From: Candidatus Methylomirabilis limnetica
GTDB lineage: Bacteria > Methylomirabilota > Methylomirabilia > Methylomirabilales > Methylomirabilaceae
Direction of reading: 5' to 3'
DNA: 32,000 nucleotides
NCBI RefSeq assembly: GCF_003044035.1
Contig: NZ_NVQC01000023.1
Coordinates: 109,301 to 141,300, forward strand
Shown: positions 1,133 to 31,058 of the stretch, in pieces
Layout: each line of letters opens with the position of its first letter
Position numbering within the stretch: position 1 is the stretch's first letter
Made by a program: the position numbers and the translations under genes
Notes under the pieces: model-generated
Told to the model about the DNA's origin: nothing
The model's input: only the letters and a program-made list of their open reading frames with translations
The model's database searches: none

Positions 1133-1272
1133 GTAACTACAGGTAGATAGACTGAAGGCTGAAGGCTGTTAGTGGTAGGAACCGAGAAGGTCTTGAACGG
1201 CTCGATTCGTGTCTTGCGAGATATTTATAACCTTCAGTCTTCAGCCTTCAGCCTAAACACCTGGGTAGTTAC
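1133..1272. repeat. MITE/REPIN-like inverted-repeat element, core type A, complete copy (AGATAG end on the left)
   Basis: GTAACTAC-AGGTAGATAGACTGAAGGCTGAAGGC ... GCCTTCAGCCTAAACACCTGGGTAGTTAC. The core matches the copies at 7702, 26248 and 30903. Confidence 0.85.
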
Positions 1273-1329
1273 ACTGATACCAGTGATTGCCATTTGCCTC
1301 TGGGACCTGATTTTCTTATAATACGATCT

Positions 1330-2187
1330 ATGAGTCAGGTAGATGACCTTCGAAGCGTCAGCCGCCAGGTAACCAAAAAGAGCGGCTCGAACTTCTACTA
1401 CTCCTTTCTCTTCCTCCCAAAGCCAAAACGCGAGGCGATGTACGCCGTCTACGCCTTCTGTCGGTTGAGCGACGATCTGGTGGATGAGTCAAAGGCTGGA
1501 GGCGATCCCTCGGCCGCGCTGACCCGATGGAGAAAAGCGCTCGATACCTACTTTCAGGACGGCGTTGGGCCCCCTGTCATCATGGCTGTTGGCCAAGCCG
1601 CGTGCCGGTTCAATATCCCAAAGGTCTACTTCGAGGAGCTGCTCAATGGCATGGAGATGGATCTCACGCGCGCCAGATATGCGACGCTTGACGAACTCTA
1701 CCCGTACTGCTACCGCGTGGCGTCGATTGTAGGCCTCATCTGCATCGAAATCTTTGGCTACACCAATCCGCAGACAAAGACGTACGCCGAACAACTGGGC
1801 ATTGCCTTTCAACTGACCAACATTATTCGGGATGTGGGTGTTGATGCACAACGAGGACGGATCTACCTTCCGCAGGATGAGTTGAAGCAGTTTGGATATT
1901 CTGAAGAAGAGCTGCTGGCCGGACGATACAACCGCGCCTTCATGGAGCTGATGCAGTTTCAGTGTGAGCGAGCCCGAGGCTTTTTTCACGCAGCCTCAGC
2001 CGCGTTGTCGGCAGAGGATGAGCGGTCGCTGCTGGCCGCAGAGATCATGCGGGCTATTTACTACCGCCTGTTGCTCAGAATCGAAGCGCAACAGTACGAT
2101 GTCTTCCGCGGGGATATCACTCTTGGTAAACCCCGGAAGCTTTTGTTGGCCGGCGGTCTGTGGCTCCGATCGATACTGCGCTTTTAG
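1330..2187 (+). CDS. Squalene/phytoene synthase family protein (HpnD/CrtB-like)
   Basis: Motifs SNFYYSFLFLP..REAMYAVYAFCRLSDDLVDE (first Asp-rich motif) and FQLTNIIRDVGVDAQRGRIYLP (second Asp-rich motif). The ATG at 1330 is preferred over the TTG at 1294 used by the track. Confidence 0.85.
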   Translation: MSQVDDLRSVSRQVTKKSGSNFYYSFLFLPKPKREAMYAVYAFCRLSDDLVDESKAGGDPSAALTRWRKALDTYFQDGVGPPVIMAVGQAACRFNIPKVYFEELLNGMEMDLTRARYATLDELYPYCYRVASIVGLICIEIFGYTNPQTKTYAEQLGIAFQLTNIIRDVGVDAQRGRIYLPQDELKQFGYSEEELLAGRYNRAFMELMQFQCERARGFFHAASAALSAEDERSLLAAEIMRAIYYRLLLRIEAQQYDVFRGDITLGKPRKLLLAGGLWLRSILRF

Positions 2188-2219
2188 TGTAATGTCCCCT
2201 GAGTCTCTTTGCTTTGATT

Positions 2220-2340
2220 GTCATTCCGGGCTTGATAAGCCTGCCCCGTACTTGATACGGGGGGAATCCAGTCGGGCCCTATGGATACCGGCTTCCGCCG
2301 GTATGACGAACTCGCGGCAAGCCTCGGGGAATGAACCCCC
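2220..2340 (+). repeat. Hairpin-rich repeat family R2, copy a
   Basis: GTCATTCCGGGCTTGA..GGAATCCAG..GGATACCGGCTTCCGCCGGTATGACGAACTCGCGGCAAGCC..GGGGAATGAACCCC recurs at 10237, 28457 (reverse complement) and 30065 (reverse complement). It translates to the artefact peptide ALWIPASAGMTNSRQ in ORF 1964-2362. Confidence 0.75.
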
Positions 2341-2344
2341 AGTG

Positions 2345-2433
2345 GATTCAAGATCTTTCTGAAGTTTTGCGTGATCACGCATGACTTACACCTAACAGCC
2401 TTCAGTCTTCAGCCTATCTACCCGAGTAGTTAC
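2345..2433. repeat. MITE-like element, right half only (core A plus AGATAG end), fused to R2 copy a
   Basis: GATTCAAGATCTTTCTGAAGTTTTGCGTGATCACGCATGACTTACACCTAACAGCCTTCAGTCTTCAGCCTATCTACCCGAGTAGTTAC. It aligns to the right halves of the 7702 and 30903 copies. Confidence 0.75.
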
Positions 2434-2473
2434 GCTGAAACATCTACACGGCAGAGACGGGGTCACGTCCTGA

Positions 2474-3070
2474 TTAGCGACCCTTACCGTGGTGGTCAAT
2501 CCCAATGTGGGCTTTGATGAACTTGACGATCCGCGCCTCGTCAAACTCATCAAACTTGTCGATCCTGCCCCATGCCGTCAGCGCAATCTTTCGATCCAGT
2601 CCGGTGTATGGCGCAAGGATAACGTGATCGTACCGCTCGGCAATCGCGGTGAGCTGTTTGATCAGGTCAGGGCAATCCTGACAGAAGTAGTTGATCGCCA
2701 CGCCGCCATCTTCGAGATTGTGAACCTGCATCTCCTTCGGGACCGGTTCGCTGTGAACGCCCCATTTTGCCACCCCGGCAGCATGAGGTCCAGAGGTTGG
2801 TGGATCGCTATTGTACGGCGGATGAGGGGTACCGAGGGCAACGTGGGGGCTCGGCAGGGTCGCAACGGAGGTCCAGCTCACCTTCTCCGTCATCTTGCCG
2901 TAACCCCAATAGGCGGCAACCATCAGAACGACCGCAATGGCGGAATAGAGCCCGATCTGCCCCATAACCCCCTGACGTCGCTTCGCTCTTTCCGCCTCAG
3001 CACGTTCCTGCTTTGCCTTTTGGTTAGCCTCTTTCTTGATTTGCGATTTCGCGATCTGCGGCTTTGCCAT
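2474..3070 (-). CDS. DUF3105-like membrane-anchored protein
   Basis: Lys/Glu-rich N-terminus, one TM helix (LYSAIAVVLMVAAYWGY), then PPTSGPH and HNLEDGGVAINY motifs that I associate with DUF3105. Confidence 0.7.
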   Translation of the reverse strand: MAKPQIAKSQIKKEANQKAKQERAEAERAKRRQGVMGQIGLYSAIAVVLMVAAYWGYGKMTEKVSWTSVATLPSPHVALGTPHPPYNSDPPTSGPHAAGVAKWGVHSEPVPKEMQVHNLEDGGVAINYFCQDCPDLIKQLTAIAERYDHVILAPYTGLDRKIALTAWGRIDKFDEFDEARIVKFIKAHIGIDHHGKGR

Positions 3071-3118
3071 CCACCCCCCTTTAATATTATCGCTGTGAGA
3101 CCGGCCTTGAACGCCAGG

Positions 3119-4003
3119 CTATTTGCTTCCTCCACTCTTCCGACGGTTGCCGACACCCTTACGCTCGACCGGCTGCGGCGTTTCTGGAGTGGCGACCAGT
3201 GTAAGCACCTCGCTAGCCGCCTCCTCGATCGATTTGCAGCTCATATCGATGACCGGCCAGCCCGCCTTGCGGAAGAGTGACCGGCTGTATGAAAGCTCAG
3301 CGCGCACATCCTCCACCTTCGCGTAGGCTTCAGCCGCAGGCGCAAGCTTGCGCTCGAGTCTGTCCCGCCGCAGATCCACCAGCCGTTCCACCCCCACAAT
3401 GAGCCCAACGATTCGGCCCTGATCGATCGTCATCAACCGGCCTGGCAGCGGAAGATGTAAGATCACGGGGACGTTCGCAACTCGCCACCCCTTTCCCGCC
3501 AGGTAGAGGCTCAACGGAGTCTTGGAGGTTCGTGAGACGCCGACGAAGACGATCTCGGCGCGGTCTAGGCCAAGCGGGTCCTGGCCGTCGTCGTGCTTGA
3601 AAGTATATTCGATAGCCTCGATTCGTTGGAGGGACTCCTGCCCTAGTTGTCGGAATAGACCGGGCTGCACAAGCGGGGGCATACACAACTGGTTGCTCAG
3701 GCGAAGCAGCAGCGGCCCGATCAGGTCGATGGTCTCTACCCCTCGCTCCCGTCCCTCCCGTAACAGGACATGCCTAAGCTCCTCTGACACCAGGGTATGC
3801 ACAATGATCCCTTTGTTCGCTTGGGCAGTCTCAATCGCACGTCGCACCTCACCCACCGTCCGGATATTGGGAAGACGGCAGATCTCCACCTCTGCCACCT
3901 GAAACTGAGCCAGCGCGGCACGGACAACCAGTTCCGCGGTGGCGCCGGTGGCGTCGGAAACGATAAAGATCTGATAACGGCCTCCGGATGAGGAGCGGTT
4001 CAT
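3119..4003 (-). CDS. ppsR: Pyruvate, water dikinase regulatory protein (bifunctional kinase/pyrophosphorylase, DUF299)
   Basis: IFIVSDATGATAE near the N-terminus and the P-loop VGVSRTSKTPLSLYLA. Size (294 aa) is typical for the family. Confidence 0.85.
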   Translation of the reverse strand: MNRSSSGGRYQIFIVSDATGATAELVVRAALAQFQVAEVEICRLPNIRTVGEVRRAIETAQANKGIIVHTLVSEELRHVLLREGRERGVETIDLIGPLLLRLSNQLCMPPLVQPGLFRQLGQESLQRIEAIEYTFKHDDGQDPLGLDRAEIVFVGVSRTSKTPLSLYLAGKGWRVANVPVILHLPLPGRLMTIDQGRIVGLIVGVERLVDLRRDRLERKLAPAAEAYAKVEDVRAELSYSRSLFRKAGWPVIDMSCKSIEEAASEVLTLVATPETPQPVERKGVGNRRKSGGSK

Positions 4004-4023
4004 AGCGGCTATCCTATCATCCC

Positions 4024-4189
4024 GTAACTACTCAGGTAGATAGACTGTAGGCTTTTAGACTGTAGGAACGCACCATGCGAGACCATACCAAGCCGAGAGC
4101 GCGTGAACTGGCCGACGAAGCGCCCTGATTCGGTCCGTGCGCAACTACTAACAGCCTTCAGCCTACAGCCTAAACACCTGAGTAGTTGC
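4024..4189. repeat. MITE-like element, core type B, complete copy (AGATAG end on the left)
   Basis: GTAACTACTCAGGTAGATAGACTGTAGGC ... GCCTACAGCCTAAACACCTGAGTAGTTGC. Flanked by ATCATCCC (4016-4023) and CTCATCCC (4190-4197). Confidence 0.85.
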
Positions 4190-4199
4190 CTCATCCCCA

Positions 4200-4649
4200 T
4201 TACAGTTCGAGGAGGACCGCCACTTCGTCGCAGCGGTACAACTTGCTGCAATTGAGGCAATCCTTCCACACCTTCTCTGGCAGTGTCAACTTGTCAACTA
4301 CGTGAAATCCAAGGCGCTCAAAGAAAGTCGGCTTATAGGTCAGGGCAAAGACTCGCCTCATCGGGAGGTCTTTCGCTGTGGCGATGCAGGCCTCGGTCAC
4401 TGCCCGACCGATCCCCTTCCCCTGGTACTCCGGCCAGACGGCCAGCGATCGAACCTCAGCCAGGTCTGCCCCGTAAACGAAGAGCGAGCACACTCCGGCA
4501 ATTAGCCCGTCCTGCTCAAAGACCTGAAAATCGCCGACCCGATCGTAGAGCTCCTGCGGCGCCAGTGGTAACAGTTCGCCCTTGCCGGCGTAGGCATTCA
4601 CCAAGCGCGCAATTGCCGGAACATCGGTCGTCTTCGCCTTCCTGACCAT
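4200..4649 (-). CDS. GNAT N-acetyltransferase (short ArgA/N-acetylglutamate-synthase-like)
   Basis: Acetyl-CoA motif VWPEYQGKGIGRAV. The C-terminal KVWKDCLNCSKLYRCDE Cys cluster is typical of short ArgA-like GNATs. Confidence 0.8.
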   Translation of the reverse strand: MVRKAKTTDVPAIARLVNAYAGKGELLPLAPQELYDRVGDFQVFEQDGLIAGVCSLFVYGADLAEVRSLAVWPEYQGKGIGRAVTEACIATAKDLPMRRVFALTYKPTFFERLGFHVVDKLTLPEKVWKDCLNCSKLYRCDEVAVLLEL

Positions 4650-4879
4650 GCGCTACTTCACCTGTCTGCGTGCGACTTGTCTTCGTGCGGCGCGCTGGCA
4701 TGGGTGCGGTCCGCCGCTATCGCCCCCTCACCGTATGATCCATCGATCCTTAGAACGGCATTCGCCACTACGCTCCTACTATCCTCGCCATTGTGAGGCG
4801 CACCCCGAATCTGAAAAGGTATTATTTGCCCGCTAGCGGAAACTGTCAAGGGAACTCTTAGACGGCAGATCCAACAGCT

Positions 4880-5290: not shown

Positions 5291-5336
5291 CGACTCCTCC
5301 CATCTCGGGCGCATTGTGCCGGTTGTCTCTGGACGC

Positions 5337-5504
5337 GTAACTACTCAGGTGTTTAGGCTGTAGGCTGAAGGCTGTTAGTCTTTGCGCATGGACCGAATCA
5401 AGGCGCACTTCGTCGGCCAGTTCAAACGCTCTGAGCTTGGCATGGTCTCGCATGGCGCGTTCCTACAGTCTAAAAGCCTACAGTCTATCTACCTGAGTAG
5501 TTAC
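5337..5504. repeat. MITE-like element, core type B, complete copy, inverted relative to 4024-4189
   Basis: GTAACTACTCAGGTGTTTAGGCTGTAGGCTGAAGGC ... CTACAGTCTATCTACCTGAGTAGTTAC. The core is the reverse complement of the 4024 copy at roughly 85-90% identity by eye. Flanked by CTGGACGC and TTGGGCGC. Confidence 0.85.
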
Positions 5505-5520
5505 TTGGGCGCAATAATAC

Positions 5521-5549
5521 TTGACAGGCTCAGGAAGAGTGACTAGATT
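5521..5549 (+). promoter_or_regulatory. Putative sigma70-type promoter for the APC permease/trkA region
   Basis: TTGACA (5521-5526), a 17-nt spacer, then TAGATT (5544-5549), preceded by AT-rich GCAATAATAC. It lies about 180 nt upstream of the CDS. Confidence 0.4.
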
Positions 5550-5732
5550 GAGCCGGTTTTGCTGAACTCCATACCCTGCGTGCTCCATGCTATCACACGA
5601 ACATGCCTGTGAGAGCGAAGGTCTTCATTGCGCCCGCCAACTTGACGAAATACGCTGACCGGGATAGCATCCTAACAGGCGTGCTGGCGCCAAGGTGACC
5701 AACGAGCCTCGCTGATCCGAGCATACTGTACC

Positions 5733-7685
5733 GTGAGGCAATCTGTGCCTACAATCGAGGAAGAGAGCGGAACGACCGTCTTGCGGCGAACCGCCGAACA
5801 CCAGCCGCCTCGCTCGTGGCGAAGTTGGCTGATCGGGCGTCCACTCCGGACCGCCGATGCCCCTGATCAGGCCATCGGAAAGACGGTCGGCTTGGCCGTC
5901 TTCGCCTCCGACGCGCTGTCATCGACCGCATACGCGACCGATGAGATTCTGTTCGTCCTGGCCGCCGCTGGAACCGCCGCACTCGTCTACGCCCTTCCGA
6001 TCTCGCTGGCCATAGTGGCACTGCTGGCCATTGTCACGCTCTCGTATTTGCAGACGATACATGCCTATCCAGGAGGCGGCGGAGCCTACATTGTGGCTCG
6101 TGACAACCTGGGAGGATTCCCATCCAAGATCGCCGGCGCGTCGCTGCTTACCGACTATATCCTCACCGTGGCCGTTTCAGTCGCTTCGGGCGTGGCCCAA
6201 CTAACCTCAGCGTATCCGTCAATTTTTCCCTACCGAGTGCCGTTAGCCATCGGGATGGTGCTGGTCATGATGGTCGTCAACCTGCGCGGCGTCAAAGAAT
6301 CCGGCGCGATTCTCGCTATACCCAGCTATTTCTTCTTGGCTATGATGCTTCTGACCATAGGCAGCGGCCTCAGTCAGTACATGATGGGGAGCCTCCATAC
6401 CGTAGTGAACCCGCCGCAGGGAAGGGAACATGTCGCGCAATCGATCTCACTCTTCCTGATTCTCCATGCCTTTTCCAATGGCACTACAGCCCTGACCGGG
6501 GTGGAGGCTATCTCTAACGGGGTCCCTGCGTTTAAGGAGCCACGTAGCCGCAATGCAGGCATCACGCTGATCTGGATGTCTGCCATTCTGGGCACGCTGT
6601 TCCTGGGCGTTACCTTCCTGGCCGGCAAAATGGGCGCGACGCCTTCGGAGACAGAAACGGTGATCTCGCAACTGGCGCGTACGGCCCATGAGGGACGGGG
6701 CTACCTGTACATCTTCACCATCGCCGCCACAACCCTTATCCTGATCATGGCGGCCAATACGGCCTATGCCGGATTCCCGCGGTTGAGCGCCCTGCTGGCG
6801 GCGGATGGCTTTTTGCCCCGGCCGCTCACTTACCGGGGAAGCCGACTCGTCTACTCGCGAGGCATTGTGGCGCTGGCCCTCATCGCCTCACTCCTGATCT
6901 GGCTGTTTCAGGCCAGCGTCAACGCGCTGATCCCGCTCTATGCCATTGGCGTCTTCCTCTCCTTCACGCTTGCCCAGGCCGGCATGGCGCACCGCTGGTG
7001 GAAGGCCGGACATCTCTCGCCAGAGCAGGAAGCCCAAGAGCATGGCTCAATACTCCGTCACGACCCGCGCTGGGCACTAAAGATGGTGATCAACGGCTTT
7101 GGCGCGCTCTGTACGGCCGGGGTCATGCTGATCTTTACCGTCACAAAGTTTCGCGATGGGGCGTGGCTCGTGATCCTGTTGGTGCCGATTCTCGTGGCGA
7201 TATTCTCTGCCATCCATTCCCATTACCGGGACTTGGCCGCCCACCTTTCATTGGAACAGTATGGTGGGCCGCCTCGAATCTCGCGTCAGCGTGTGATCCT
7301 GGCGATTAGTGGTGTGCATCGCGGGACGCTGGCGGCGCTCCGCTATGCCCGAACATTGTCCGACGATATTACGGCCGTGCATATCTGCACCGACCCCGTC
7401 GAGGCCGAGACGCTGAATCGGAAATGGGAATCGTGGGGCGATGGAATCCGCCTGGTCGTACTTGATTCCCCTTACCGGTTGTTCCTGGAACCCTTATTGG
7501 GGTATATCGAGGAGATTGCCGCACGGCGCCAGCCGAACGAGATTATCACCATCGTCGTGCCGCAGTTTGTCCCCCGCCACTGGTGGCACAACCTCCTACA
7601 CAACCAGACCGCGATGCTGCTCAGACTAATGCTGTTGTTCAAGCCAGGGATCGTGATTATTGACGTACCCTATCAGATAGAGTAA
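5733..7685 (+). CDS. APC-superfamily permease with a C-terminal cytosolic domain (KimA-like, possible K+ transporter)
   Basis: About 12 predicted TM helices (GLAVFASDALSSTAYATDEILFVL ...) and a soluble tail of about 150 aa. The start is uncertain: GTG at 5733 (track), or GTG at 5745 preceded by GAGG. Two trkA-like genes lie immediately downstream. Confidence 0.8.
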   Translation: MRQSVPTIEEESGTTVLRRTAEHQPPRSWRSWLIGRPLRTADAPDQAIGKTVGLAVFASDALSSTAYATDEILFVLAAAGTAALVYALPISLAIVALLAIVTLSYLQTIHAYPGGGGAYIVARDNLGGFPSKIAGASLLTDYILTVAVSVASGVAQLTSAYPSIFPYRVPLAIGMVLVMMVVNLRGVKESGAILAIPSYFFLAMMLLTIGSGLSQYMMGSLHTVVNPPQGREHVAQSISLFLILHAFSNGTTALTGVEAISNGVPAFKEPRSRNAGITLIWMSAILGTLFLGVTFLAGKMGATPSETETVISQLARTAHEGRGYLYIFTIAATTLILIMAANTAYAGFPRLSALLAADGFLPRPLTYRGSRLVYSRGIVALALIASLLIWLFQASVNALIPLYAIGVFLSFTLAQAGMAHRWWKAGHLSPEQEAQEHGSILRHDPRWALKMVINGFGALCTAGVMLIFTVTKFRDGAWLVILLVPILVAIFSAIHSHYRDLAAHLSLEQYGGPPRISRQRVILAISGVHRGTLAALRYARTLSDDITAVHICTDPVEAETLNRKWESWGDGIRLVVLDSPYRLFLEPLLGYIEEIAARRQPNEIITIVVPQFVPRHWWHNLLHNQTAMLLRLMLLFKPGIVIIDVPYQIE

Positions 7686-7701
7686 AAGTAAGCGTTCAGC
7701 A

Positions 7702-7878
7702 GTAACTACTCAGCAGTAACTACTCAGGTGTTTAGGCTGAAGGCTGAAGACTGAAGGCTCTGCATTATCTCGCAAGGCACGAATCGAGCCATTCAAGATC
7801 TTTTCGGAGTTTTGTATGATCACGCATGACTTACTTCTAAAAGCCTTCAGCCTTCAGCCTATCTACCTGAGTAGTTAC
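7702..7878. repeat. MITE-like element, core type A, complete copy (GTTTAG end on the left) with a 14-bp terminal duplication
   Basis: GTAACTACTCAGCA+GTAACTACTCAGGTGTTTAGGCTGAAGGCTGAAGACTGAAGGC ... GCCTTCAGCCTTCAGCCTATCTACCTGAGTAGTTAC. Perfect 8-bp direct repeats GTTCAGCA at 7694-7701 and 7879-7886. Confidence 0.85.
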
Positions 7879-8015
7879 GTTCAGCAGTCAGCCGTCAGCT
7901 TTCAGCAACAACAAGGAAAGAACGAAAATGGCCGACCATTTCCAAATCAAAAGCTTGGACCTCTGTGGTTAGTTTGCCTCATCTTGCTGACGGCTGAGCG
8001 CTGACCGCTGAATGC
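7879..8015. repeat. Inverted arrays of four heptamers (TCAGC-type) separated by about 80 bp
   Basis: Left arm GTTCAGCaGTCAGCcGTCAGCtTTCAGC (7879-7906). Right arm GCTGACgGCTGAGcGCTGACcGCTGAA (7986-8012). The 7-nt period matches the CTGAAGG heptamers of the MITE arms. Confidence 0.5.
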
Positions 8016-8040
8016 TATTTTCTGAGGAGCAGAACACGCT

Positions 8041-8701: not shown

Positions 8702-9385
8702 ATGTTTGTGCTGATCGCCGGCGGAGGCCGAACTGCTTCACACCTGGCCACCCTCTTGCTGGCTCGCCAGCACGAGGTCCGACTTATCGAGCACCGACGG
8801 GACGTCCTCTCACGTCTTCACCACGAGTTGCCCACCGAGGTGATCTACGAAGGCAACCCCACCGATCCACAAGTATTGGAACGGGCCGATATCCGTCGGG
8901 CGAAGGTGTTAGCTGCGTGCACCTCTTCCGATGAAGATAATCTCTCGCTCTGCTTCTTTGCCCGCACCCTCTATCGGGTGCCCCGTACTATCGGCTGGAT
9001 CAACAATCCCCGCACCGCTTGGCTCTTCGACGAGAAGTTCCACGTAGACGTGGCCCTCAACCAGGCGCAGATCTTTAGCAGTCTGATCGAAGAAGAGATG
9101 TCGCTCGGCGATATGATGACACTGCTCAAATTGCGGAGGGGCCGCTATTCCCTGGTAGAGGAGAAGATCCCCCCGGGCGCCCGCGCTCTGGGTATCGCTA
9201 TCAAGGACCTGCGCTTGCCGCCGGATTCGGTGATCGCCACCATCATCCGGGACGGGCAGCTCCTCATTCCGCGCGGGGATACCCGATTTGAAGTTGGGGA
9301 TGAGGTGCTCGCGATTGCAGATCATGAAGGCACCGAAGAGCTCGCCGGCCTGTTCGGCCGACCGGATGCGCAACAGAAGACGTAA
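8702..9385 (+). CDS. trkA: TrkA/RCK-domain potassium-transport regulatory protein, second paralog
   Basis: VLIAGGGRTASHLA Rossmann motif and C-terminal EVGDEVLAIAD (TrkA-C). Its TAA stop (9383-9385) lies inside the MITE terminus GTAACTAC. Confidence 0.85.
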   Translation: MFVLIAGGGRTASHLATLLLARQHEVRLIEHRRDVLSRLHHELPTEVIYEGNPTDPQVLERADIRRAKVLAACTSSDEDNLSLCFFARTLYRVPRTIGWINNPRTAWLFDEKFHVDVALNQAQIFSSLIEEEMSLGDMMTLLKLRRGRYSLVEEKIPPGARALGIAIKDLRLPPDSVIATIIRDGQLLIPRGDTRFEVGDEVLAIADHEGTEELAGLFGRPDAQQKT

Positions 9386-9429
9386 CTACTTAGGCGTTTA
9401 GACTGAAGGCTGAAGACTGAAGGTTATAC
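9382..9429. repeat. MITE-like element, left (GTTTAG) end only
   Basis: GTAACTACTTAGGCGTTTAGACTGAAGGCTGAAGACTGAAGGTTATA. Homology to the other copies stops at about 9429. Confidence 0.7.
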
Positions 9430-9679
9430 ATTCAAACGATAGTTGCTCTGAAGTATCAGCCTCAACATACGGCCCTTCGTTTTTCGACTTAAAGGCCATC
9501 GTTTCATAGTAACGCCCACCTGCGCCAATAGTGTCTAGTGCCTCCTTACTGCGGAACGCACCAACCGTCGAGACAACAATCCCTTCCTTTCCGTTTTCCA
9601 GTAGAGTGTTGCGCCTAAACATGCAGCGAGACGCACAAATAAAGTGTCCTGCCCACCCTCTTTCAGTTCTCTTTACCAT
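9398..9679 (-). CDS. Small hypothetical protein (phage-like, Cys-containing)
   Basis: The ATG at 9679 is preceded by GGAGGA. The protein reads MVKRTERGWAGHFICASRCMFRRNTLL..VSTVGAF..GGRYYETMAF. The last 7 codons and the stop are supplied by the MITE end (..FSLQPSV*). Local GC is low. Confidence 0.5.
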   Translation of the reverse strand: MVKRTERGWAGHFICASRCMFRRNTLLENGKEGIVVSTVGAFRSKEALDTIGAGGRYYETMAFKSKNEGPYVEADTSEQLSFECITFSLQPSV

Positions 9680-9746
9680 TGTGTCCTCCAATCGCGCCCT
9701 CGTGTACAGGCGTCTCCATCACCTCACCCCCGCTCTCAGTAGCCCC

Positions 9747-10094
9747 TTACTCCCTCCCCCAACACTCCCCCAATTCTCCTCCCACACCACCCCCCTCCAA
9801 CACCCAGCTAAGCTCTATCACCGCCTGCTCCGCCCGTATACAATTCTCACCAGCAGCTCTGCCCTCGCGTAGCTCGTGATCAAATCTTTCTCGATACCAG
9901 GCGAGTCGTGCGCGTATCTCCTGCTCAGTTCTCAGAGCCAAAAGCCGTTTGAAAGTGTAGATGAGAAGTGATATGAAAAATATGAGTAACCAATACTCGT
10001 CTACCCAGCGTCCCAACCACGTGTCAAAAACGTATTCCCTTAAGAAGAACTCAATAGCTTGAGTGCCAGCGTAAATAGCCTCAATGATGGTCAT
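9747..10094 (-). CDS. Small hypothetical protein with one TM helix
   Basis: The ATG at 10094 follows GGGGGTGAGGTGA. TM segment YWLLIFFISLLIYTF. The Gly-rich C-terminal tail may be over-extended. Low-GC segment. Confidence 0.4.
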   Translation of the reverse strand: MTIIEAIYAGTQAIEFFLREYVFDTWLGRWVDEYWLLIFFISLLIYTFKRLLALRTEQEIRARLAWYRERFDHELREGRAAGENCIRAEQAVIELSWVLEGGGVGGELGECWGRE

Positions 10095-10236
10095 GGCGTC
10101 ACCTCACCCCCGCTTTCACTAACCATCGCCCACGCTTAACCTGCGTCACCCCTCGTGCCTGCCGCGCCTGTAGCTGCTTGAGTGATAGCGCCATAGCATG
10201 AGCCTCACATAAGCTCGCAAGACGCGAATCAAGTCA

Positions 10237-10382
10237 ATGAACTACCCCGCAGCAAGCTGCTTCGGTATCGTCTTCTGTTCTGGCCCGTCATTCCGTGCTT
10301 GACACGGAATCCAGCCGGGCCCTCTGGATACCGGCTTCCACCGGTATGACGAACTCGCGGCAAGCCGCGGGGAATGAACCCC
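10237..10382 (+). repeat. Hairpin-rich repeat family R2, copy b (long form)
   Basis: ATGAACTACCCCGCAGCAAGCTGC..GTCATTCCGTGCTTGACACGGAATCCAG..GGATACCGGCTTCCACCGGTATGACGAACTCGCGGCAAGCCGCGGGGAATGAACCCC. Nearly identical to the reverse complement of 30065-30208. Confidence 0.8.
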
Positions 10383-10386
10383 AGTA

Positions 10387-10478
10387 GATTCAAGACCTTC
10401 TCGGTAACTCTTCTTTCGGAAACCCTGTGATTACCCCTAACAGCCTTCAGCCTTCAGCCTATCTACCTTGTAGTTAAC
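10387..10478. repeat. MITE-like element, right half only (core A plus AGATAG end), fused to R2 copy b
   Basis: GATTCAAGACCTTCTCGG...CCCCTAACAGCCTTCAGCCTTCAGCCTATCTACCTTGTAGTTAAC. The junction with R2 is the same as at 2340/2345. Confidence 0.75.
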
Positions 10479-22436: not shown

Positions 22437-22594
22437 CCCAAGCCCTCCTTTGCGCCGTCCAACGTTGACCTAACGGGCGTACAAAAGCCGAGGGAAGCGT
22501 CGCTATTGCACGTCCGTGTTGAGCGAATTGTTAAGCTGCTTGCCGTTGAAGTAGGAAACTCGGAACTCGTCCACGATTCTCTCAAACGCGCTCC

Positions 22595-22858
22595 CTACTC
22601 GACGTCGCGGTAGGAATTCTCACTCCCCCAGACATTGGGAACTTTTGGGGCAAAAGGGTCGTTCCACCACTCCTTGCCGTCTACGAAGAATTTGTACTCA
22701 TATCGACCAGGCTCTAAGGATAGTGAGATGATCCAGACCGTCTGGAGGCCGTCGTAGACCATCGGGTGATCCGACACATTCCAGCCGTTGAAATCCCCTG
22801 CCAGGGTCACCGACTGGGCTCCAGGGCAGTGGAAGCTGAAGCTTACGACCTTTCCCAT
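22595..22858 (-). CDS. Stand-alone CBM48 / AMPK-beta-type glycogen-binding-domain protein, paralog A
   Basis: VSFSFHCPGAQSVTLAGDFNGWN...GRYEYKFFVDGKEWWNDP. The ATG at 22858 follows GGGAGGA; the track start at 22879 is a GTG. Confidence 0.8.
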   Translation of the reverse strand: MGKVVSFSFHCPGAQSVTLAGDFNGWNVSDHPMVYDGLQTVWIISLSLEPGRYEYKFFVDGKEWWNDPFAPKVPNVWGSENSYRDVE

Positions 22859-22962
22859 CGCGAATCCTCCCAGCCCCACTTCTCGTATAAGCCGTCTGAA
22901 GTGTCTATCCGGATTCCATCGGTCATGATCCGGCCGACCAGGGCGGCGATGAAATATATCGC

Positions 22963-23922
22963 TTATTTAGCTACAGATCCTGATGACTGATCGCCTACCC
23001 CCTTGCTCTCCTTGCTCTCCCTGCTCCCTCTGCTCTCCCTGCTCTCCCTGCTCCCCTTGATCTCCCTACTCTCCTGCGGCCCACCTACGCCAATAAACGG
23101 CACAGCCCCAGCGCCTGTAACCTGGGGAAGTATGCCATTCCATTTGTCTATAGCCCGGAGATTGGCCTCTATCTTTCTCAGTTCTATCAGGTCCGGTGAA
23201 ATATTTGCTTTCTGCAGCCTCAGGGACTCTGCCTCTGCCCTGGCTGCTGTAATCGTCTGCTCTGCCTCTACCTTTATCCTGTCCAGGTCTCTCTTTGCCT
23301 TCAGTGCAAGCTGTTCTGCTGTCTGCTTTGCCTCAATAGCCTCAGTAAATACTCGTGAGAAGCTGAATGTGACAATAGAAAACGCATCCACTACTATGTT
23401 ATACGCTAGGAGTCTTTCTGAAAGGGCTGCTCTTATTGCCTCGCTTACCGCTGGCCTCTTTGTGATAAGCTCTTCCGCTGTGTATTTGGCCGACACCGCC
23501 TTCATTACCTCTTGTATTGCAGGGTCTATAATACGCACCTTGAACTGAACTCCAAGCGTTTGATAGACAACATTTGCCTTCTCAGGTAGGATATGATAGT
23601 TAAGCGCAACCGACAAAGTCACATCCTGAAGATCAGCCGATGCAGATGCGGCATCAGTCACTGCCTTCTGAACCTTGACATCCATTGGGATAACGCTTTG
23701 CATTATAGGCACCCTGAAATGCAGTCCTTCTCCAAGCACAATCTCTTGAACAGCGCCAAAATTAAGGACAACCCCTCTTTCACCTGCACCAATCTGAACC
23801 CATGGATGTAAAATCATAAAACCGACCAGAATTGCTGCAAACATCAGCGCTAGCATCACAGGGCCTTTCATCAGTACAGACTGCACTGCCTTCTTGGCCA
23901 TGAAGATCTCTCTCTCATCCAT
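22963..23922 (-). CDS. SPFH/band-7 (prohibitin/HflC-like) membrane protein with a repetitive charged C-terminal tail
   Basis: N-terminal TM helix (VMLALMFAAILVGFMIL), then GERGVVLNFGAV...a typical band-7 core, a coiled-coil segment, and the tail ESREIKGSRESRESRGSRESKESKG. GC is clearly lower than in the flanks. Confidence 0.85.
   Translation of the reverse strand: MDEREIFMAKKAVQSVLMKGPVMLALMFAAILVGFMILHPWVQIGAGERGVVLNFGAVQEIVLGEGLHFRVPIMQSVIPMDVKVQKAVTDAASASADLQDVTLSVALNYHILPEKANVVYQTLGVQFKVRIIDPAIQEVMKAVSAKYTAEELITKRPAVSEAIRAALSERLLAYNIVVDAFSIVTFSFSRVFTEAIEAKQTAEQLALKAKRDLDRIKVEAEQTITAARAEAESLRLQKANISPDLIELRKIEANLRAIDKWNGILPQVTGAGAVPFIGVGGPQESREIKGSRESRESRGSRESKESKGVGDQSSGSVAK
23002..23075. 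repeat. About 8 tandem copies of a 9-bp unit (CTTGCTCTC-like) inside the SPFH 3' end
   Basis: cttgctctc cttgctctc cctgctccc tctgctctc cctgctctc cctgctccc cttgatctc cctactctc. Encodes the [ES][RK] triplet tail on the minus strand. Confidence 0.8.
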
Positions 23923-23968: not shown

Positions 23969-24507
23969 TCAACTTAACCGCTTCGACTTCTTTAGCTTTC
24001 TGAGCTTGATCGTATAGTTCCATTCCCCGTGGAACTTATGGGGGTTCGATGTTGAGAGCGGCCAGTTCCTCATTCGAGACCTTGATCTTGAGGGAATACT
24101 CCCGTGTGTCCAGCTTGGCTTTGACCTTCAATCCTGTCTTGGGCATGGTCGCACCGATCTGTTGTACCACAACTTCATGGCTCATCAACGGACGCTCTCT
24201 CCAATTCATGCTGATGTAGGAAAATAACCGATATTCGATCTTGTTCCACCTTCTTGGTGTCGACCGAGATGATGGGGTCGCCCGCCTTCAAGAAATGATG
24301 AACGTGACGACTGAGATGCTGAAATTGCCGGTCGTGATCTGGATAGGCCGCGCCTTCCGCCAGCGTTTTCATGATGCTCTGGTCTCTCAGGGCGATCGGC
24401 TTGCGATCGCCGCCCGTCGCTCGGACCCCGCACCCTGCCGCTACCTGGCGGCTCATCTCCTCGCGCTCAGCGAAGGTGAGTCTCTTGTAAGTTGTCATCC
24501 AGCACAA
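23969..24507 (-). pseudogene. ISAzo13-family (DDE_Tnp_ISAZ013-like) transposase remnant, internally deleted and frameshifted
   Basis: ORF 24175-24507 contains ..AEGAAYPDHDRQFQHLSRHVHHFLKAGDPIISVDTKK.. . A second frame at 23969-24180 gives ..TGLKVKAKLDTREYSLKIKVSNEELAALNIEP, then after a frameshift HKFHGEWNYTIKL..*. Both are motifs I associate with ISAzo13 transposases, which are over 400 aa when intact. Confidence 0.55.
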
Positions 24508-24567
24508 CTCCTTTCTCTTGAGCTATCCCAGGATACAGGTGTTGCGCTAGAAACTTGAACTCAGGTT

Positions 24568-24603
24568 AAAAAAAAGCCGCCTCCGCCTCTCGCGGATGGC
24601 GGC
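24568..24603 (-). terminator. Strong Rho-independent terminator
   Basis: Minus strand: GCCGCC-A-TCCGC GAGAG GCGGA GGCGGC followed by TTTTTTTT. This is an 11-bp GC stem with one bulge and a T8 tract. Confidence 0.75.
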
Positions 24604-24805
24604 CCGACCACCCTCTGTCCTCCGAAAATAGCTAGACGCTATCTCCGGACCCCTCTGGAATAACCTGTCACAACGTTATGTCCTAAGAAGTCATTTTGAT
24701 GATCGGCGACAACCTCACAACACCCTACGAAGAGACCATTCGATGCGAACATGCGACCTCAGCAGGCGTCAGCTTCAGATGTGTCGACGCGTTACACTAA
24801 CGCTC
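24604..24805 (-). other. Orphan transcription unit between a duplicated lgt-type promoter and the terminator: candidate sRNA, or mRNA for a 37-aa micro-ORF at 24639-24752
   Basis: No ORF of 60 aa or more. The micro-ORF MFASNGLFVGCCEVVADHQNDFLGHNVVTGYSRGVRR starts after CTGAGGTCGC and shares its first 4 residues and its leader with lgt (MFASPGPF..). Confidence 0.35.
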
Positions 24806-24833: not shown

Positions 24834-24855
24834 GGTCAATCAGGCTCTGTGCCCC

Positions 24856-25119
24856 CTACTCGATATCGAGGTATGAATTCTCACTCCCCCAGACATTGGG
24901 AACTTTTGGTGCGGAGGGGTCGTTCCACCACACCCGACCATCCACGAAGAACTTGTACTCGTATCGGCCAGGCTCTAACGGAAGCGCGACGGTCCATACC
25001 TCCTGGATGCCGTCATAGACCATCGGGTGGGCCGACACATTCCAGCCGTTGAAATCCCCCGCCAGGATGACCGACCCGGCTCCAGGACAGCGAAAGCTGA
25101 AGCTGGCAATCCTTCCCAT
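24856..25119 (-). CDS. Stand-alone CBM48 / AMPK-beta-type glycogen-binding-domain protein, paralog B
   Basis: IASFSFRCPGAGSVILAGDFNGWN...GRYEYKFFVDGRVWWNDP. Roughly three quarters of residues are identical to paralog A by eye. The ATG at 25119 follows GAGGGA. Confidence 0.8.
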   Translation of the reverse strand: MGRIASFSFRCPGAGSVILAGDFNGWNVSAHPMVYDGIQEVWTVALPLEPGRYEYKFFVDGRVWWNDPSAPKVPNVWGSENSYLDIE

Positions 25120-25570
25120 AGCCAATCCCTCTGTCATCAATGCTCATGTAGCGCGCCCAAGGTTTCTGCGCGGAGCTAATTCATGCTGAGCTCATCAGTG
25201 ATGAAATTACACAATGGATCGCAAATAGGCAAGTTCTTTATGCCTGGAACGTACCGCGCGATTCCCTGGAGAGCTCGCAGGTCTTAACGGCTACTCTGGT
25301 TAATCTGAAACGTCTGAACTGCACAGCATGGGAGGTGGGATGGCGAAGGCATACTGCAGCGGATGTGGGATCACACCGGTAGATCCTTCAGCGTCGCTAC
25401 CAGCGCCCGTGGTGACTGGTCGACTCCGGCCAGCACCGTAATCTGGGCGCACGACACGTACTGCTTGGGAATTCAACTGGACCTCGGTCCCTCTGGTGAG
25501 GGCTCCAGTCGGTTAATCCTTTCGGTTACAGAACTGCCTCCTCGACAGAAAGGTGTGGTAGAATACAACC

Positions 25571-26247: not shown

Positions 26248-26401
26248 GTAACTGCTCAGGTAGATAGACTGAAGGCTGAAGGCTTTTAGGGGTAAGCCGC
26301 GTGATTATTTAAAACCCCGAGAAGGTCTTGAGGGGCTCGATTCGTGTCTTATGAGATAATTTAGAGCCTTCAGCCTTCAGCCTAAACACCTGAGTAGTTA
26401 C
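26248..26401. repeat. MITE-like element, core type A, complete copy (AGATAG end on the left)
   Basis: GTAACTGCTCAGGTAGATAGACTGAAGGCTGAAGGC ... GCCTTCAGCCTTCAGCCTAAACACCTGAGTAGTTAC. Confidence 0.85.
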
Positions 26402-26486
26402 AATCCGAGATATCATCTGAGAAAAGGCGCTGGAGCGTTTATACGCTCGTGTAAGGGACGATGCGCCACACTGGAGGCTCTTTCAC

Positions 26487-27125: not shown

Positions 27126-27161
27126 GACGTGCGTAGCAGTCGCACCGCCTTTGCGGCGCCT

Positions 27162-28373: not shown

Positions 28374-28456
28374 GTACCCTCCTCCTTGTCAGCCGATCGA
28401 ACCACGGCAACATCCCCGCTTCATATTCCCCGCCGGATGCCGCCTCTAAGCCAAAT

Positions 28457-28573
28457 GGTCTTCATCCCCGCGAAGCTTGTCCCCGCATGCTTGAAACGGG
28501 GAGCGGCAATCCAGAGAGGCGCTGGATTCCCCCGTATCAAGTACGTGGCAGGCTTGTCAAGCCCGGAATGACA
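28457..28573 (-). repeat. Hairpin-rich repeat family R2, copy c (variant second half)
   Basis: The reverse complement reads GTCATTCCGGGCTTGACAAGCCTGCCACGTACTTGATACGGGGGAATCCAG.., matching 2220-2270. The second half has the same hairpin architecture with different sequence. Confidence 0.7.
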
Positions 28574-28596
28574 CCCAAGCACAGAGATACAAAGTT

Positions 28597-28661
28597 GTCA
28601 TTGCGAACGAGGTGAAGCAATCTCGCAGATTGCCACGCACCCTGCTGGTGCTCGCAATGAC
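28597..28661. repeat. Nested-hairpin repeat module (perfect 10-bp inverted repeat)
   Basis: GTCATTGCGA (28597-28606) ... TCGCAATGAC (28652-28661), with the inner stem GCAATCT-cgc-AGATTGC. Confidence 0.7.
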
Positions 28662-28729
28662 AGAAAGAAGCTAGTGATTGTGCAGTCTATCGCTGTTCTT
28701 GGGTAACAAACTGTCTGCTGTTCGCCGCA

Positions 28730-30055
28730 TCACGACACCGTTTGATTCTTCGCGAAGAGGATATAGGACCTTGCTCGGCCCTCACGGATGGCCTGCTCGA
28801 CCAGGGCCCGAGGCTCCTTCGCCTTGACTCTTGGCAGGATCGCCTCGAAGAACTGGATGTAGAAATCGTCTGGCACCACGACTACGGAGGCACGCATTGT
28901 GAGCCCCGCCCGGTCGATGGTTCTCGCGTAGCGAACAGTACGGCTTTTACCGGACGCAATCCTGGTGTCAAAGAGTTCTTGTGTCAGATCAAGCGTGACC
29001 TCTCGCCCGATCCGTTCCTCTTGCACACTCTCATTCACCTGCTTACCATCCGTATCTACTAACTCCCATCGGACTATGATCTTCGGCGTAACGTAGGTTG
29101 GGACATGATGCCCAACCCCGGTATTAGCCAGCGTGATTTCAGCCTGAACTTGCTCGCCGACCTGGTAGCGCTCCTTATTTACCGAAAGACGGACGGATAC
29201 GCCTTGCTTGACCATCTCAGGATCATGGATCCCCCGCCATAGATGCCGCCGCTCCGGCATATGGCAGCCCTGACAGGTCATCCCTCCCAGCGCATACGGC
29301 CCCTCTTTCCATTCATTATAGGTGTTTTCGAGCAGCTTACCGTTCAGGGCAGACCCACTCGGCTCGAACTGGTGGCACCCTTTGCAGAACTCGGATCGCT
29401 CAAAGGCCGCCGTCCTGATGGCGCCGGCGTGGGGGAGCTGTGCTACCGGAGCGGAATTCTCAATCGAGCCGTCCCGCTTTGGCGGCCCGAAGCGCTGGTG
29501 CTTCCGAACATGGCACCCGGCACAGGTCAGACCCTTTTGCTGCAGCGAGGCCGAAAAGGCGCGGTTCGTTTTGAACTTCAACGCGGTGCTGCCCCAGACC
29601 CCTGACGCGCTCGGCAATGGCGTCGCAACGGCGCGGCGCTTCTTGAACAGAGAGGGGGAACCACCGCCTTTCTTCACGACCTTCTCCTGCTGCTCGGTGA
29701 GAGGAGCATGACAACTGTAGCAGAGGATCGCCATATTGGGATCACCATGGATAAACTCCATCGTCTGGCCTATCACGCCCGGCCCCATACTTTTACTGTG
29801 GAGGCTGCTGCTCCAATCCTCGTACTGAGTTCGATGGCAGACGGCGCAACTTTCCGGGTCAAGAGATGCCTCTATCGACGAGAAATGGGCGGGCGGCTTA
29901 CCTTGAGGCGGGATGGGCGTCTGCCAATGGCGCGTGAGAAACTCAAGCTGCGCGTCGTCATCGGCAGCGGGTGGCGGGTCTTTCATCGCCCATGCGCCAA
30001 CCGAAAGCCCCAGGCCTGCGATCACGACAGCGGTATACAGAAGAAGCCGTTTCAT
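28730..30055 (-). CDS. Secreted pentaheme c-type cytochrome
   Basis: Five CxxCH motifs (CAVCH, CYSCH, CAGCH, CKGCH, CQGCH). Signal peptide MKRLLLYTAVVIAGLGLSVGAWA from the ATG at 30055. The 77 upstream codons of track ORF 28730-30286 are read-through of repeat R2 (..ALWIPASAGMTNSRQ..). Confidence 0.85.
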   Translation of the reverse strand: MKRLLLYTAVVIAGLGLSVGAWAMKDPPPAADDDAQLEFLTRHWQTPIPPQGKPPAHFSSIEASLDPESCAVCHRTQYEDWSSSLHSKSMGPGVIGQTMEFIHGDPNMAILCYSCHAPLTEQQEKVVKKGGGSPSLFKKRRAVATPLPSASGVWGSTALKFKTNRAFSASLQQKGLTCAGCHVRKHQRFGPPKRDGSIENSAPVAQLPHAGAIRTAAFERSEFCKGCHQFEPSGSALNGKLLENTYNEWKEGPYALGGMTCQGCHMPERRHLWRGIHDPEMVKQGVSVRLSVNKERYQVGEQVQAEITLANTGVGHHVPTYVTPKIIVRWELVDTDGKQVNESVQEERIGREVTLDLTQELFDTRIASGKSRTVRYARTIDRAGLTMRASVVVVPDDFYIQFFEAILPRVKAKEPRALVEQAIREGRARSYILFAKNQTVS

Positions 30056-30064
30056 TCTCGTCGA

Positions 30065-30208
30065 GGGTCGATACCCTGCGGCTTGCCGCGAGTTCGTCAT
30101 ACCGGCGGAAGCCGGTATCCAGAGGGCCCGACTGGATTCCGTGTCAAGCACGGAATGACGGGCCAGTACAGAAGTCGATACCCCGTAGCTTGCCGCGGGG
30201 TAGTTCAT
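30065..30208 (-). repeat. Hairpin-rich repeat family R2, copy d (long form)
   Basis: The reverse complement is nearly identical to 10237-10382. It fills the gap between the TlpA-like gene and the cytochrome gene. Confidence 0.8.
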
Positions 30209-30224
30209 CGATGGCGCCCACTCC

Positions 30225-30893
30225 TTACCTCTTGCGGGGCGTCTTGCCGGCGTCCAAAAGGATTCCGATGAGCCTCTGAGCATCATCTCCCGCCCAATCC
30301 CTCGGCCCGATGCTCCCAGCCACGACCTTCCCGTCGCGATTGATCAGGAGCCGGGTTGGCGTGGCGCGAACCCCGTACAGGTTGGCGACGCTTGAGCTGG
30401 TGTCCACAAGAGCGGGAAAGGTGAGCTTATGCTTGAGCACATAGTTCCGGACCTGGTCGGGCGGCTCGGCGATGTTCACTGCGAGCACGACGAAATCGTT
30501 CTTCTGAAACTGCTGGTAGAGGCGCTCGAGTGAGGGAAACTCCCTCAGGCAATAGCCTCACCAGGTTGCCCAGAAGGTCAGGAAGACGACCTTTCCACGC
30601 TGGTCAGCCAGCCGGACCGACTTCCCTGACACGTCCTGGAGTGTAAAGTCGGGAGCAACCGATTCGTTTCGGAGCTTAATGAACCCGAGGGCTTCCAGGG
30701 AACTATCTATGGAGACGGTTTCCTGACCAGCGCCGACAGAGATAACCGGGGAGGCGACGAGCATACAGCCGAGTAAAAGAACGGCCACCCACCCAGGGCT
30801 CTTTCTTGAGAGGTGTCGGTTTATCTTCACTGCCTTACTCTCACTTCTTGCTACCCACTGTCGCTGGTCTTGCGCCAGCTCTGAGCCAATCAT
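30225..30893 (-). CDS. TlpA/ResA-like membrane-anchored thioredoxin-fold oxidoreductase with in-frame UGA (probable selenocysteine, UxxC active site)
   Basis: Track ORFs 30558-30893 and 30225-30488 are in the same frame. The first ends ..[10 protein letters not shown] at TGA (30560-30558). The read continues [28 protein letters not shown].., giving WATW-U-GYC where this family has W-C-x-x-C. An anchor helix ([13 protein letters not shown]) is present. Confidence 0.7.
30531..30547 (-). promoter_or_regulatory. Candidate bacterial SECIS mini-helix
   Basis: The mRNA reads UGA GGCUAUUGCC UGAGGGA-GUU-UCCCUCA. This is a perfect 7-bp stem with G and U in the apical loop, 17 nt long, starting 10 nt after the UGA. 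Confidence 0.55.
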
Positions 30894-30902
30894 AGTTCAT
30901 AA

Positions 30903-31058
30903 GTAACTACTCAGGTGTTTAGGCTGAAGACTGAAGGTTCTAAATTATCTCGCAAGGCCCGAATCGAGCCATTCAAGATCTTTTCTGAGTTTTCTTTGAT
31001 CACGCATGACTTACCCCTAAAAGCCTTCAGCCTTCAGCCTATCTACCTGAGTAGTTAC
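30903..31058. repeat. MITE-like element, core type A, complete copy (GTTTAG end on the left)
   Basis: GTAACTACTCAGGTGTTTAGGCTGAAGACTGAAGG ... GCCTTCAGCCTTCAGCCTATCTACCTGAGTAGTTAC. Confidence 0.85.

Follow-up and report, generated by a model that had tools for sequence, protein, structure and literature searches.

The question raised by this locus is how a dense set of short inverted repeats originated and spread. The window, a stretch of 32,000 nt (contig NZ_NVQC01000023.1, positions 109,301 to 141,300, forward strand), is ordinary chromosome and is assigned by exact protein matches to Candidatus Methylomirabilis limnetica, phylum NC10, and an initial annotation had described in it six complete and three partial copies of an element resembling MITEs (miniature transposable elements with inverted repeats) or REPINs, all of which could be read as described. 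We consider it highly probable that these elements are MITEs of the IS66 family, ISBst12 group, which derive by deletion from a 445–453 bp cassette carrying a gene of family PF05635 and are moved in trans. The full cassette shows two layers: outer ISBst12-type ends with 8-bp target duplications, and an inner module in which the gene is framed by heptamer arrays.

In the window, the 14-nt end GTAACTACTCAGGT has 14 matches at up to two mismatches, against 0.05 expected from shuffled sequences, and these matches coincide with the ends that had been listed. The three-part arm was borne out as well: the 14-nt end is followed by AGATAG or GTTTAG and then by two to three heptamers, with a hexamer that differs between the two ends in every complete copy. 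Folded as RNA, the element is predicted to form a 14-bp terminal stem, a 3 × 3 internal loop, corresponding to the 3-nt bubble expected by the initial annotation, and a heptamer stem (−72.9 kcal/mol, z = −8.0 for copy 26248–26401; −63.9 kcal/mol, z = −5.5 for copy 4024–4189). Every copy is, as had been stated, intergenic and located between open reading frames (ORFs) with Pfam support. Two extents needed correction, while the copies themselves are present: the copy given as 177 bp at 7702–7878 consists of a 163-bp element and a 14-bp duplication, and the copy at 1133–1272 lacks 2 nt at its left end.

Evidence for transposition comes from target duplications and from orthologous sites. Three complete copies of the window are flanked by 8-bp direct repeats matching at 8, 7 and 6 of 8 positions, as had been claimed. 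We further considered 82 paired copies of 86–483 bp extracted from many genomes, for which the right flank shifted by 8 served as control: the duplication was perfect in 32 and 7/8 in 16 copies, so that 48 of 82 reach at least 7/8, compared to a single one for the shifted control. A length of 8 bp was the sole one giving signal, and the duplicated targets are AT-rich. Orthologous loci with the same gene order were available from four Methylomirabilis relatives, whose TrkA proteins are 94, 89, 87 and 82% identical, and their empty and filled sites bear out the 8-bp duplications. Insertion at 5337–5504 is proven by an empty site in the closest relative (L271), which holds a single TTGGACGC where the window reads CTGGACGC[element]TTGGGCGC; the 6/8 repeat is a decayed true duplication. 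The site at 9382–10478 is filled in three relatives, with a complete copy of about 155 bp in L275, a degenerate one in L271 and 33 bp in L273, each flanked by CAGAAGAC. Since all three carry a copy at this same spot, 9382–9429 and 10387–10478, formerly listed as separate half copies, represent opposite ends of a single old insertion that was later split. At 7702–7878 the spacer that separates the permease gene from trkA measures just 33 bp in the relatives. Flanks of the window copies were additionally compared by eye for exchanged target duplications, which would indicate recombination between copies and account for the three that have no duplication, and none matched.

The family extends far beyond this genome. 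A census of species-representative genomes with an exact 24-nt arm yielded at least 120 stretches in about 64 assemblies (counted by accession prefix), confirming the expectation of further copies elsewhere. Among the matches listed, the arm is found with 24/24 identity in metagenome-assembled genomes (MAGs) labelled as about 10 phylum-level groups, including Nitrospirota, Desulfobacterota, Methylomirabilota, anammox Planctomycetota, Nitrospinota and Elusimicrobia, and several of the arm-bearing contigs are 0.2–4.6 Mb long. Short contigs and contig ends hold many of the arms and gene-carrying copies, which is the expected picture for a repeat that breaks short-read assemblies. BLAST of the element against PLSDB plasmids and a search of the arm against IMG/VR gave no match.

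The origin of the element cores became apparent from a full copy, located at positions 467–919 of locus L090, which is 453 bp long, is flanked by a perfect 8-bp duplication (TATTTTAA) and contains an intact 118-aa ORF. This ORF matches PF05635 (E = 8e-34, 116.5 bits, cut-off 33.8) and TIGR02436, the four-helix-bundle protein family (E = 2e-34, 117.9 bits, cut-off 24), as well as PDB entry 2GSC, the pentameric structure of XCC0516 (E = 3e-26); matches to bAvd (E = 0.002) and NF033474 (E = 1e-5) are weak and far under the family cut-offs. All window copies map to the two ends of this 453-bp reference, type A approximately to positions 1–72 and 362–453 and "type B" to positions 1–95/99 and 416–453, and of the gene they retain only MRDHTKLR... 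and ...EKVLNGLIRALRD, i.e. N- and C-terminal remnants. The two cores had been considered unrelated; as each of them corresponds to the 5′ and 3′ ends of the same gene of 354 bp, they are deletion variants of a single gene with different breakpoints. Further intact copies of 445–453 bp with the same arms were found at L040, L128, L136 and L137, one of them with a perfect 8-bp duplication (AAAGGAGA), and the intact copies reside inside operons, co-oriented with their neighbours. Near-identical proteins occur in metagenomes (7,976 matches, the best 120 clusters being at least 89% identical). The gene is under purifying selection, with dN/dS of 0.08–0.46 in a comparison restricted to intact genes.

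The gene remnants furthermore allowed 36 copies to be oriented independently. In about 30 of them the gene-5′ side shows RGA(TAG), or a close variant of it, and the gene-3′ side shows RTT(TAG); a few have ends that are symmetric or divergent, and no copy is clearly reversed. The fixed left/right difference of the hexamer, which had been interpreted as functional, is thus real and polar; as it follows the direction of the ancestral gene, the asymmetry may be inherited rather than functional.

Smaller elements were noticed as well. In three genomes (L063 at 6250–6330, L100 and L109) a mini-hairpin of about 75 nt, built of the same GCTGAAG-type heptamers but with different ends, interrupts the cassette's four-helix-bundle gene, seemingly at similar positions. 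A small palindromic element with arms TATAGACTTTCAGATAA(T)TAATTTCACAA occurs in L004 (6015–6125), L041 (~6000–6035) and L032 (3070–3096), in L004 inside a MITE of the window family.

Ends that start with GTAA together with an 8-bp duplication are the signature of the IS66 family, and the window elements have both. To this signature a candidate partner can be added. A metagenome scan for the 14-nt end not followed by heptamers gave 120 loci, 26 of which show an IS66-like coding sequence between or adjoining the arms, and 16 loci are complete elements of 1.5–2.7 kb with the same 14 nt at both ends. Long copies with matching termini and a transposase, for which the initial annotation had proposed to search, hence exist: these insertion sequences encode a single transposase ORF, and a Pfam scan of four of their long ORFs identified the IS66 DDE domain PF03050 in all four, together with zf-IS66 and/or DUF6444. 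Their target duplications are 8/8 in L181, L198 and L243, 7/8 in L215 and 9/9 in L153. Their inverted repeat comprises 14 nt only, the interior diverges, and the transposases are about 30–63% identical to one another; the 14 nt are therefore near-invariant across phyla, with a variable interior. Heptamers are absent from these insertion sequences, and both arrays and gene are missing from other MITEs of 60–350 bp that share the ends and the 8-bp duplications. An ISBst12-group transposase thus probably moves both cassette and MITEs in trans.

Several candidates for a role in this mobilisation were rejected. Heptamers as subterminal transposase-binding sites are incompatible with same-end insertion sequences that do without them and with PF05635 genes that have them without those ends. 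The ISAzo13-like and IS21 IstB fragments of the window are of the wrong family and in the wrong position, and there is, as noted before, no transposase with matching ends in the window. A long arm pair in L041 (2783+ / 6271−, 3.5 kb) has no target duplication. Some of the ISBst12-type insertion sequences with the same 14-nt ends are 2.7 kb long, and a match to the Druantia DruA domain (PF14236, E = 1e-35) lies in the additional ORF or N-terminal region that they carry (L179 1702–2592, also L228 and L164).

The inner layer was examined on 15 PF05635 genes from plasmids of cyanobacteria, Azospirillum and Gemmatirosa, a sample that is mostly cyanobacterial. Thirteen of them display period-7 arrays with an inverted-repeat score across the gene of 10–31, while 46 of 48 neighbouring control genes score at most 10 and the two exceptions share an array with a four-helix-bundle gene. 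The plasmid genes carry their arrays without IS66 ends. The heptamer differs from one subfamily to the next and is rich in purines upstream on the sense strand (e.g. GTAGGGA, GGTGACA, AAGGGAA, GGCAGAA, AGTCAGG, AGGGAAC, GGGTGTG), and the arrays occupy the whole spacer between neighbouring genes, as for cas6|cas4 (twice, in different genera), cmr2|cmr3, ribonucleotide reductase beta|alpha and conjugation operons. Protein pairs of 72–83% identity share their heptamer type in different genomic contexts, and since these contexts are unrelated, the array-gene-array unit therefore moves as a whole. The heptamer arrays belong to the gene and not to the transposase. The Azospirillum copy is framed by inverted GGACAGA/GGACGGA arrays and lies in what we take, from flanking rRNA recognised by eye, to be a 23S rRNA gene, apparently at helix 45.

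Two observations on these arrays should be mentioned. On cyanobacterial plasmids (L125–L127, L259–L269) four-helix-bundle genes sit in very tight intra-operon spacers, and in several cases the downstream start codon follows directly after the pyrimidine-rich array, with no obvious ribosome-binding site. The window itself holds an array-only hairpin at 7879–8019 with no IS66-type ends, composed of four heptamers per arm (GTTCAGC AGTCAGC CGTCAGC TTTCAGC ... GCTGACG GCTGAGC GCTGACC GCTGAAT) around a core of about 80 nt, with a predicted RNA fold of −59.4 kcal/mol (z = −3.6). It is missing from the Methylomirabilis relatives examined, MITE 7716–7878 is inserted into its first array, and it may represent a gene-less relic of an array-type cassette.

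The cassette is built, from the outside inwards, of the 14-bp terminal inverted repeat, a 3-nt spacer differing by side (RGA gene-5′, RTT gene-3′), a purine-rich heptamer array (TAGRCTG / AAGGCTG) and the gene, followed by the inverted array and the inverted terminal repeat. Internal deletion gave rise to the gene-less MITEs, which keep both ends and so would still be movable. For their movement we propose a model in which a DDE transposase, supplied by an ISBst12-group insertion sequence from another part of the genome or from the community, would bind the 14-bp ends, and insertion would proceed by an 8-bp staggered cut, with AT-rich and mostly intergenic targets preferred. Arrays and gene constitute an older inner unit with the architecture of classical 23S rRNA intervening sequences: the arrays would pair into a long stem in RNA, which RNase III could cut by analogy to the Coxiella intervening sequence, making insertions into transcribed DNA tolerable, and the four-helix-bundle protein may have some element-level function.

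A number of points weigh against this model. For three of the six complete window copies, a target duplication could not be recognised. Neither the window nor the 120 MITE-bearing genome loci listed yielded an IS66-family transposase, and transposase and four-helix-bundle gene were not found together in one insertion sequence among the 120 metagenome loci. We infer mobilisation in trans from identical ends and identical duplication length. The purifying selection hints that the protein aids spread, which passive cargo moved in trans leaves unexplained. Lastly, the breadth over phyla leans partly on MAG labels, some of which are probably mis-binned: contig DATMXF010000044.1 (L114), labelled Patescibacteria, carries Methylomirabilis-type "type B" copies, and this contig is probably one such case. 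The Methylomirabilis pyruvate kinase cluster likewise includes one "Patescibacteria"-labelled protein.

The strongest competing explanation, which we regard as rather unlikely, is that the 453-bp cassette is semi-autonomous, its own protein binding the heptamer arrays as DNA or RNA hairpin and aiding the element, either by recruiting or assisting the transposase or by protecting the host transcript, while the MITEs would parasitise it. Such a role would be in agreement with purifying selection on the gene in independent insertions, with thousands of near-identical proteins in metagenomes and with arrays and gene travelling together, the heptamer type tracking protein similarity; in addition, the protein family is homologous to Avd, a nucleic-acid- and reverse-transcriptase-binding accessory protein. 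However, copies that lack the gene outnumber the others by far and show intact target duplications, which makes the protein dispensable in cis, and the 60–350 bp MITEs with the same ends and duplications do entirely without arrays or gene. The covariation of heptamer and protein can equally be explained by co-inheritance, and comparing intact genes only biases dN/dS downward.

Mobilisation in trans also has to be weighed against the improbable view that the copies are domesticated RNA hairpins, kept as RNase III sites, transcript stabilisers or attenuators and not by moving. The predicted hairpins are very stable, window copies lie 10–25 bp from gene ends, some of them between co-oriented genes, and RNase III cleaves the analogous stem of Coxiella (PMC4990558). 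The copy at site 9382 is kept across Methylomirabilis lineages whose TrkA proteins are 87–94% identical; however, it decays differently in each (complete, degenerate, a 33-bp remnant, split by 1 kb), which indicates neutral decay and not conservation. The window copies moreover have no orientation bias relative to the flanking genes and no U-tract for termination. A catalogued RNA family did not emerge either, since Rfam returned no match at gathering or permissive thresholds and only weak miRNA-precursor-like matches for the elements (22 bits against a gathering score of 100). Spread as a REP/REPIN-type system by a RAYT (IS200/IS605-like HUH) transposase has no more than a superficial likeness in its favour (short, palindromic, dense, intergenic), and the label REPIN-like of the initial annotation is incorrect. 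This reading can be dismissed with near certainty, as it is contradicted by the fixed 8-bp target duplications and by ends that a DDE transposase family uses, in identical form, as its inverted repeats, and as the elements measure 140–450 bp and are not paired 20–35-nt REPs, with no protein family common to the 120 loci listed and no transposase or RAYT among the 10 cluster representatives checked. Clustering of ORFs of at least 100 aa from these genome loci gave no shared family beyond housekeeping types (AAA/DUF4143, radical SAM, ABC transporters, sigma-54 activators).

The copies and further features of the window are compiled in Table 1.

Table 1. Element copies and other features of the window; element positions refer to the full 453-bp copy.
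Feature	Location	Strand	Element positions	Target duplication	Remarks
MITE copy	1133..1272	+	10–42 and 355–453	none recognisable	gene-5′ side left; left end reads GTAACTAC^AGGT; remnant VVGTEKVLNGSIRVLRD matches C-terminus of gene
Truncated MITE copy	2345..2433	−	1–71		retains gene-5′ arm, gene start and short 3′ gene remnant; cut where second repeat family (2214–2339) abuts
MITE copy, "type B" deletion variant	4024..4189	+	1–95 and 416–451	ATCATCCC (4016–4023) / CTCATCCC (4190–4197), 7/8	remnant MRDHTKPRARELADE matches N-terminus of gene
MITE copy, "type B" deletion variant	5337..5504	−		CTGGACGC (5329–5336) / TTGGGCGC (5505–5512), 6/8	
MITE copy, type A	7716..7878	−		GTTCAGCA (7694–7701, 7879–7886), 8/8	163 bp
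14-bp tandem duplication of junction	7702–7715				TCAGCAGTAACTAC, repeat spans 7696–7723; crosses junction of target duplication and element end, giving extra partial end GTAACTACTCAGCA
Array-only hairpin	7879..8019	none			
Old MITE copy, split by ~1 kb nested DNA	9382..10478	−		left CAGAAGAC (9374–9381) kept; right one lost in ~15-bp deletion	gene-3′ arm 9382–9429; gene-5′ arm and remnants 10387–10478
MITE copy, type A	26248..26401	+	1–44 and 364–453	none recognisable	
MITE copy, type A, both ends exact	30903..31058	−	1–74 and 362–453	none recognisable	remnant SEKILNGSIRALRDN matches C-terminus of gene
Second repeat family, ~120 nt	2214–2339, 10264–10382, 28529–28578, 30065–30182				copies 92–95% identical; several short GC-rich palindromes (GTCATTCC..GGAATCCAG..GGATACCGGCTTCCGCCGGTATGACGAACTCGCGGCAAGCC.CGGGGAATGAACCCC)
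nhaA	20406–21872				
Direct repeat, 300 nt	22590–22889 and 24851–25150				81% identity; covers two CBM48 / AMPK1_CBM genes, 94 aa each
Band-7/SPFH ORF	22963–23922	−			tandem 9-nt repeat (CTCCCTGCT-like, ~8 units) at 22999–23070
ISAzo13-like fragment	24175–24507	−			ISAzo13-type DDE domain with HTH
nhaA-I (Na+) riboswitch	24594–24652	−			46.3 bits
AhpC/TSA-like ORF	30558–30893	−			ends after first ~37 profile positions; adjoins MITE at 30903
IS21 IstB fragment	31419–31943	−			covers profile positions 83–236 only

The genes of the window encode, among others, phytoene/squalene synthase, a PEP synthase regulator, a permease, TrkA (two copies), GpsA, Lgt, pyruvate kinase, a P-type ATPase and NhaA. 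The AhpC/TSA-like ORF is probably a truncated pseudogene. The second repeat family is unrelated to the MITEs; in two cases one of its copies borders on a truncated MITE, both times at the same position inside the MITE, and this suggests a point preferred for insertion or recombination. The nhaA-I riboswitch is the only Rfam match above gathering score in the window; nhaA lies about 2.7 kb downstream, with the ISAzo13-like transposase fragment and Band-7, CBM48 and cytochrome c genes in between.

Among known systems, the window elements resemble bacterial MITEs and mobile insertion cassettes (MICs), e.g. MIC231 of Bacillus cereus, in that they are small and multicopy, with insertion-sequence inverted repeats, target duplications and no transposase. 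The 453-bp form carries a passenger gene like a MIC, while the 140–170 bp forms are MITEs. In contrast to the described examples, a PF05635 gene that brings inverted heptamer arrays of its own serves as passenger, the MITEs derive from the cassette and not directly from an insertion sequence, and the arm is shared at full identity by MAGs of so many phylum labels. Of the ISBst12 group, ISDge4 from Deinococcus geothermalis encodes a 449-aa transposase, has an 8-bp direct repeat like the window elements and was observed to transpose (PMC12898284). Its ends, GTGACTACTCAGCA and GTAACTGCTCAGCA, agree with GTAACTACTCAGGT at 12 of 14 positions, both starting with GTAA. Unlike IS66/ISBst12 members, the window elements are without transposase; their interior consists of heptamer arrays together with what remains of a small, unrelated gene. 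Avd, which diversity-generating retroelements have as accessory protein, belongs to a homologous fold family with weak matches (PMC10053308), but no reverse transcriptase, template repeat or variable repeat is nearby. As IS66-family MITEs or a mobile insertion cassette, the system is of a known kind. It is widespread in uncultured lineages of environmental importance, namely NC10 methanotrophs, Nitrospira, anammox bacteria and sulfate reducers and generates spurious ORF calls, and the 14-bp end with a single-ORF transposase makes up a compact system of potential use as a genetic tool.

The inner module compares most closely to the 23S rRNA intervening sequences with an S23p ORF of Leptospira, Coxiella burnetii and Brucella, which share the protein family of the cassette and have a similar size (~430–760 nt); the Azospirillum copy, with presumed 23S rRNA around it recognised by eye, has inverted heptamer arrays around the gene. 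ORF-bearing intervening sequences have been known since 1993, and their origin and mobility are still described as unclear (PMC4990558). For the Coxiella sequence, a 28-bp stem formed by the termini is reported, along with GACAGAT heptamers that lie upstream of the ORF, cleavage by RNase III at the first repeat and ORF deletions in some strains (PMC4990558), so that complementary termini forming a long stem, heptamers upstream of the ORF and ORF-deleted variants are common to both systems. Classical intervening sequences, however, reside in rRNA helices, with no transposase ends or target duplications reported, whereas the window family lies between protein-coding genes, an Rfam scan of the window giving no rRNA, and has IS66-type ends and 8-bp duplications. 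The intervening-sequence gene family and its array/stem architecture are now found in an element with transposase-type ends, exact 8-bp duplications, an empty site and a candidate transposase family, which renders testable the idea that intervening sequences represent transposable cassettes and are tolerated at any site from which RNase III can remove them. We tentatively entertain, as a possibility short of an even chance, that the array-gene-array unit is a general, unrecognised class of small selfish cassette, and that the 23S rRNA intervening sequences with an ORF are one and the same thing. The cassette would then insert between operon genes and into rRNA helices since RNase III excises its hairpin, each protein would recognise the heptamer array that goes with it, gene-less relics would account for many of the bacterial heptamer arrays, single or paired, that are so far unexplained, and a lineage in Nitrospirota, Desulfobacterota and NC10 would have captured ISBst12 ends, explaining the spread across phyla.

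The passenger module, its identity with the architecture of ORF-bearing intervening sequences and the general association of array and gene appear to be undescribed in the incomplete body of literature covered; within it, papers dealing with heptamer arrays or with the ORF of intervening sequences made no such links, and no paper containing GTAACTACTCAGGT was found. The arrays themselves have counterparts in STRR, GGGAATC and GGGGA(C/T)T, tandem intergenic heptamers that in Xanthomonas often form convergent pairs capable of hairpin formation (PMC4692102). The cyanobacterial PF05635 genes studied here are framed by heptamer arrays that resemble these simple-repeat arrays of cyanobacteria and Xanthomonas, for which the corresponding papers drew no link to a gene or to mobility, and the array-gene association thereby provides a concrete lead on the origin of the abundant heptamer arrays in both groups.

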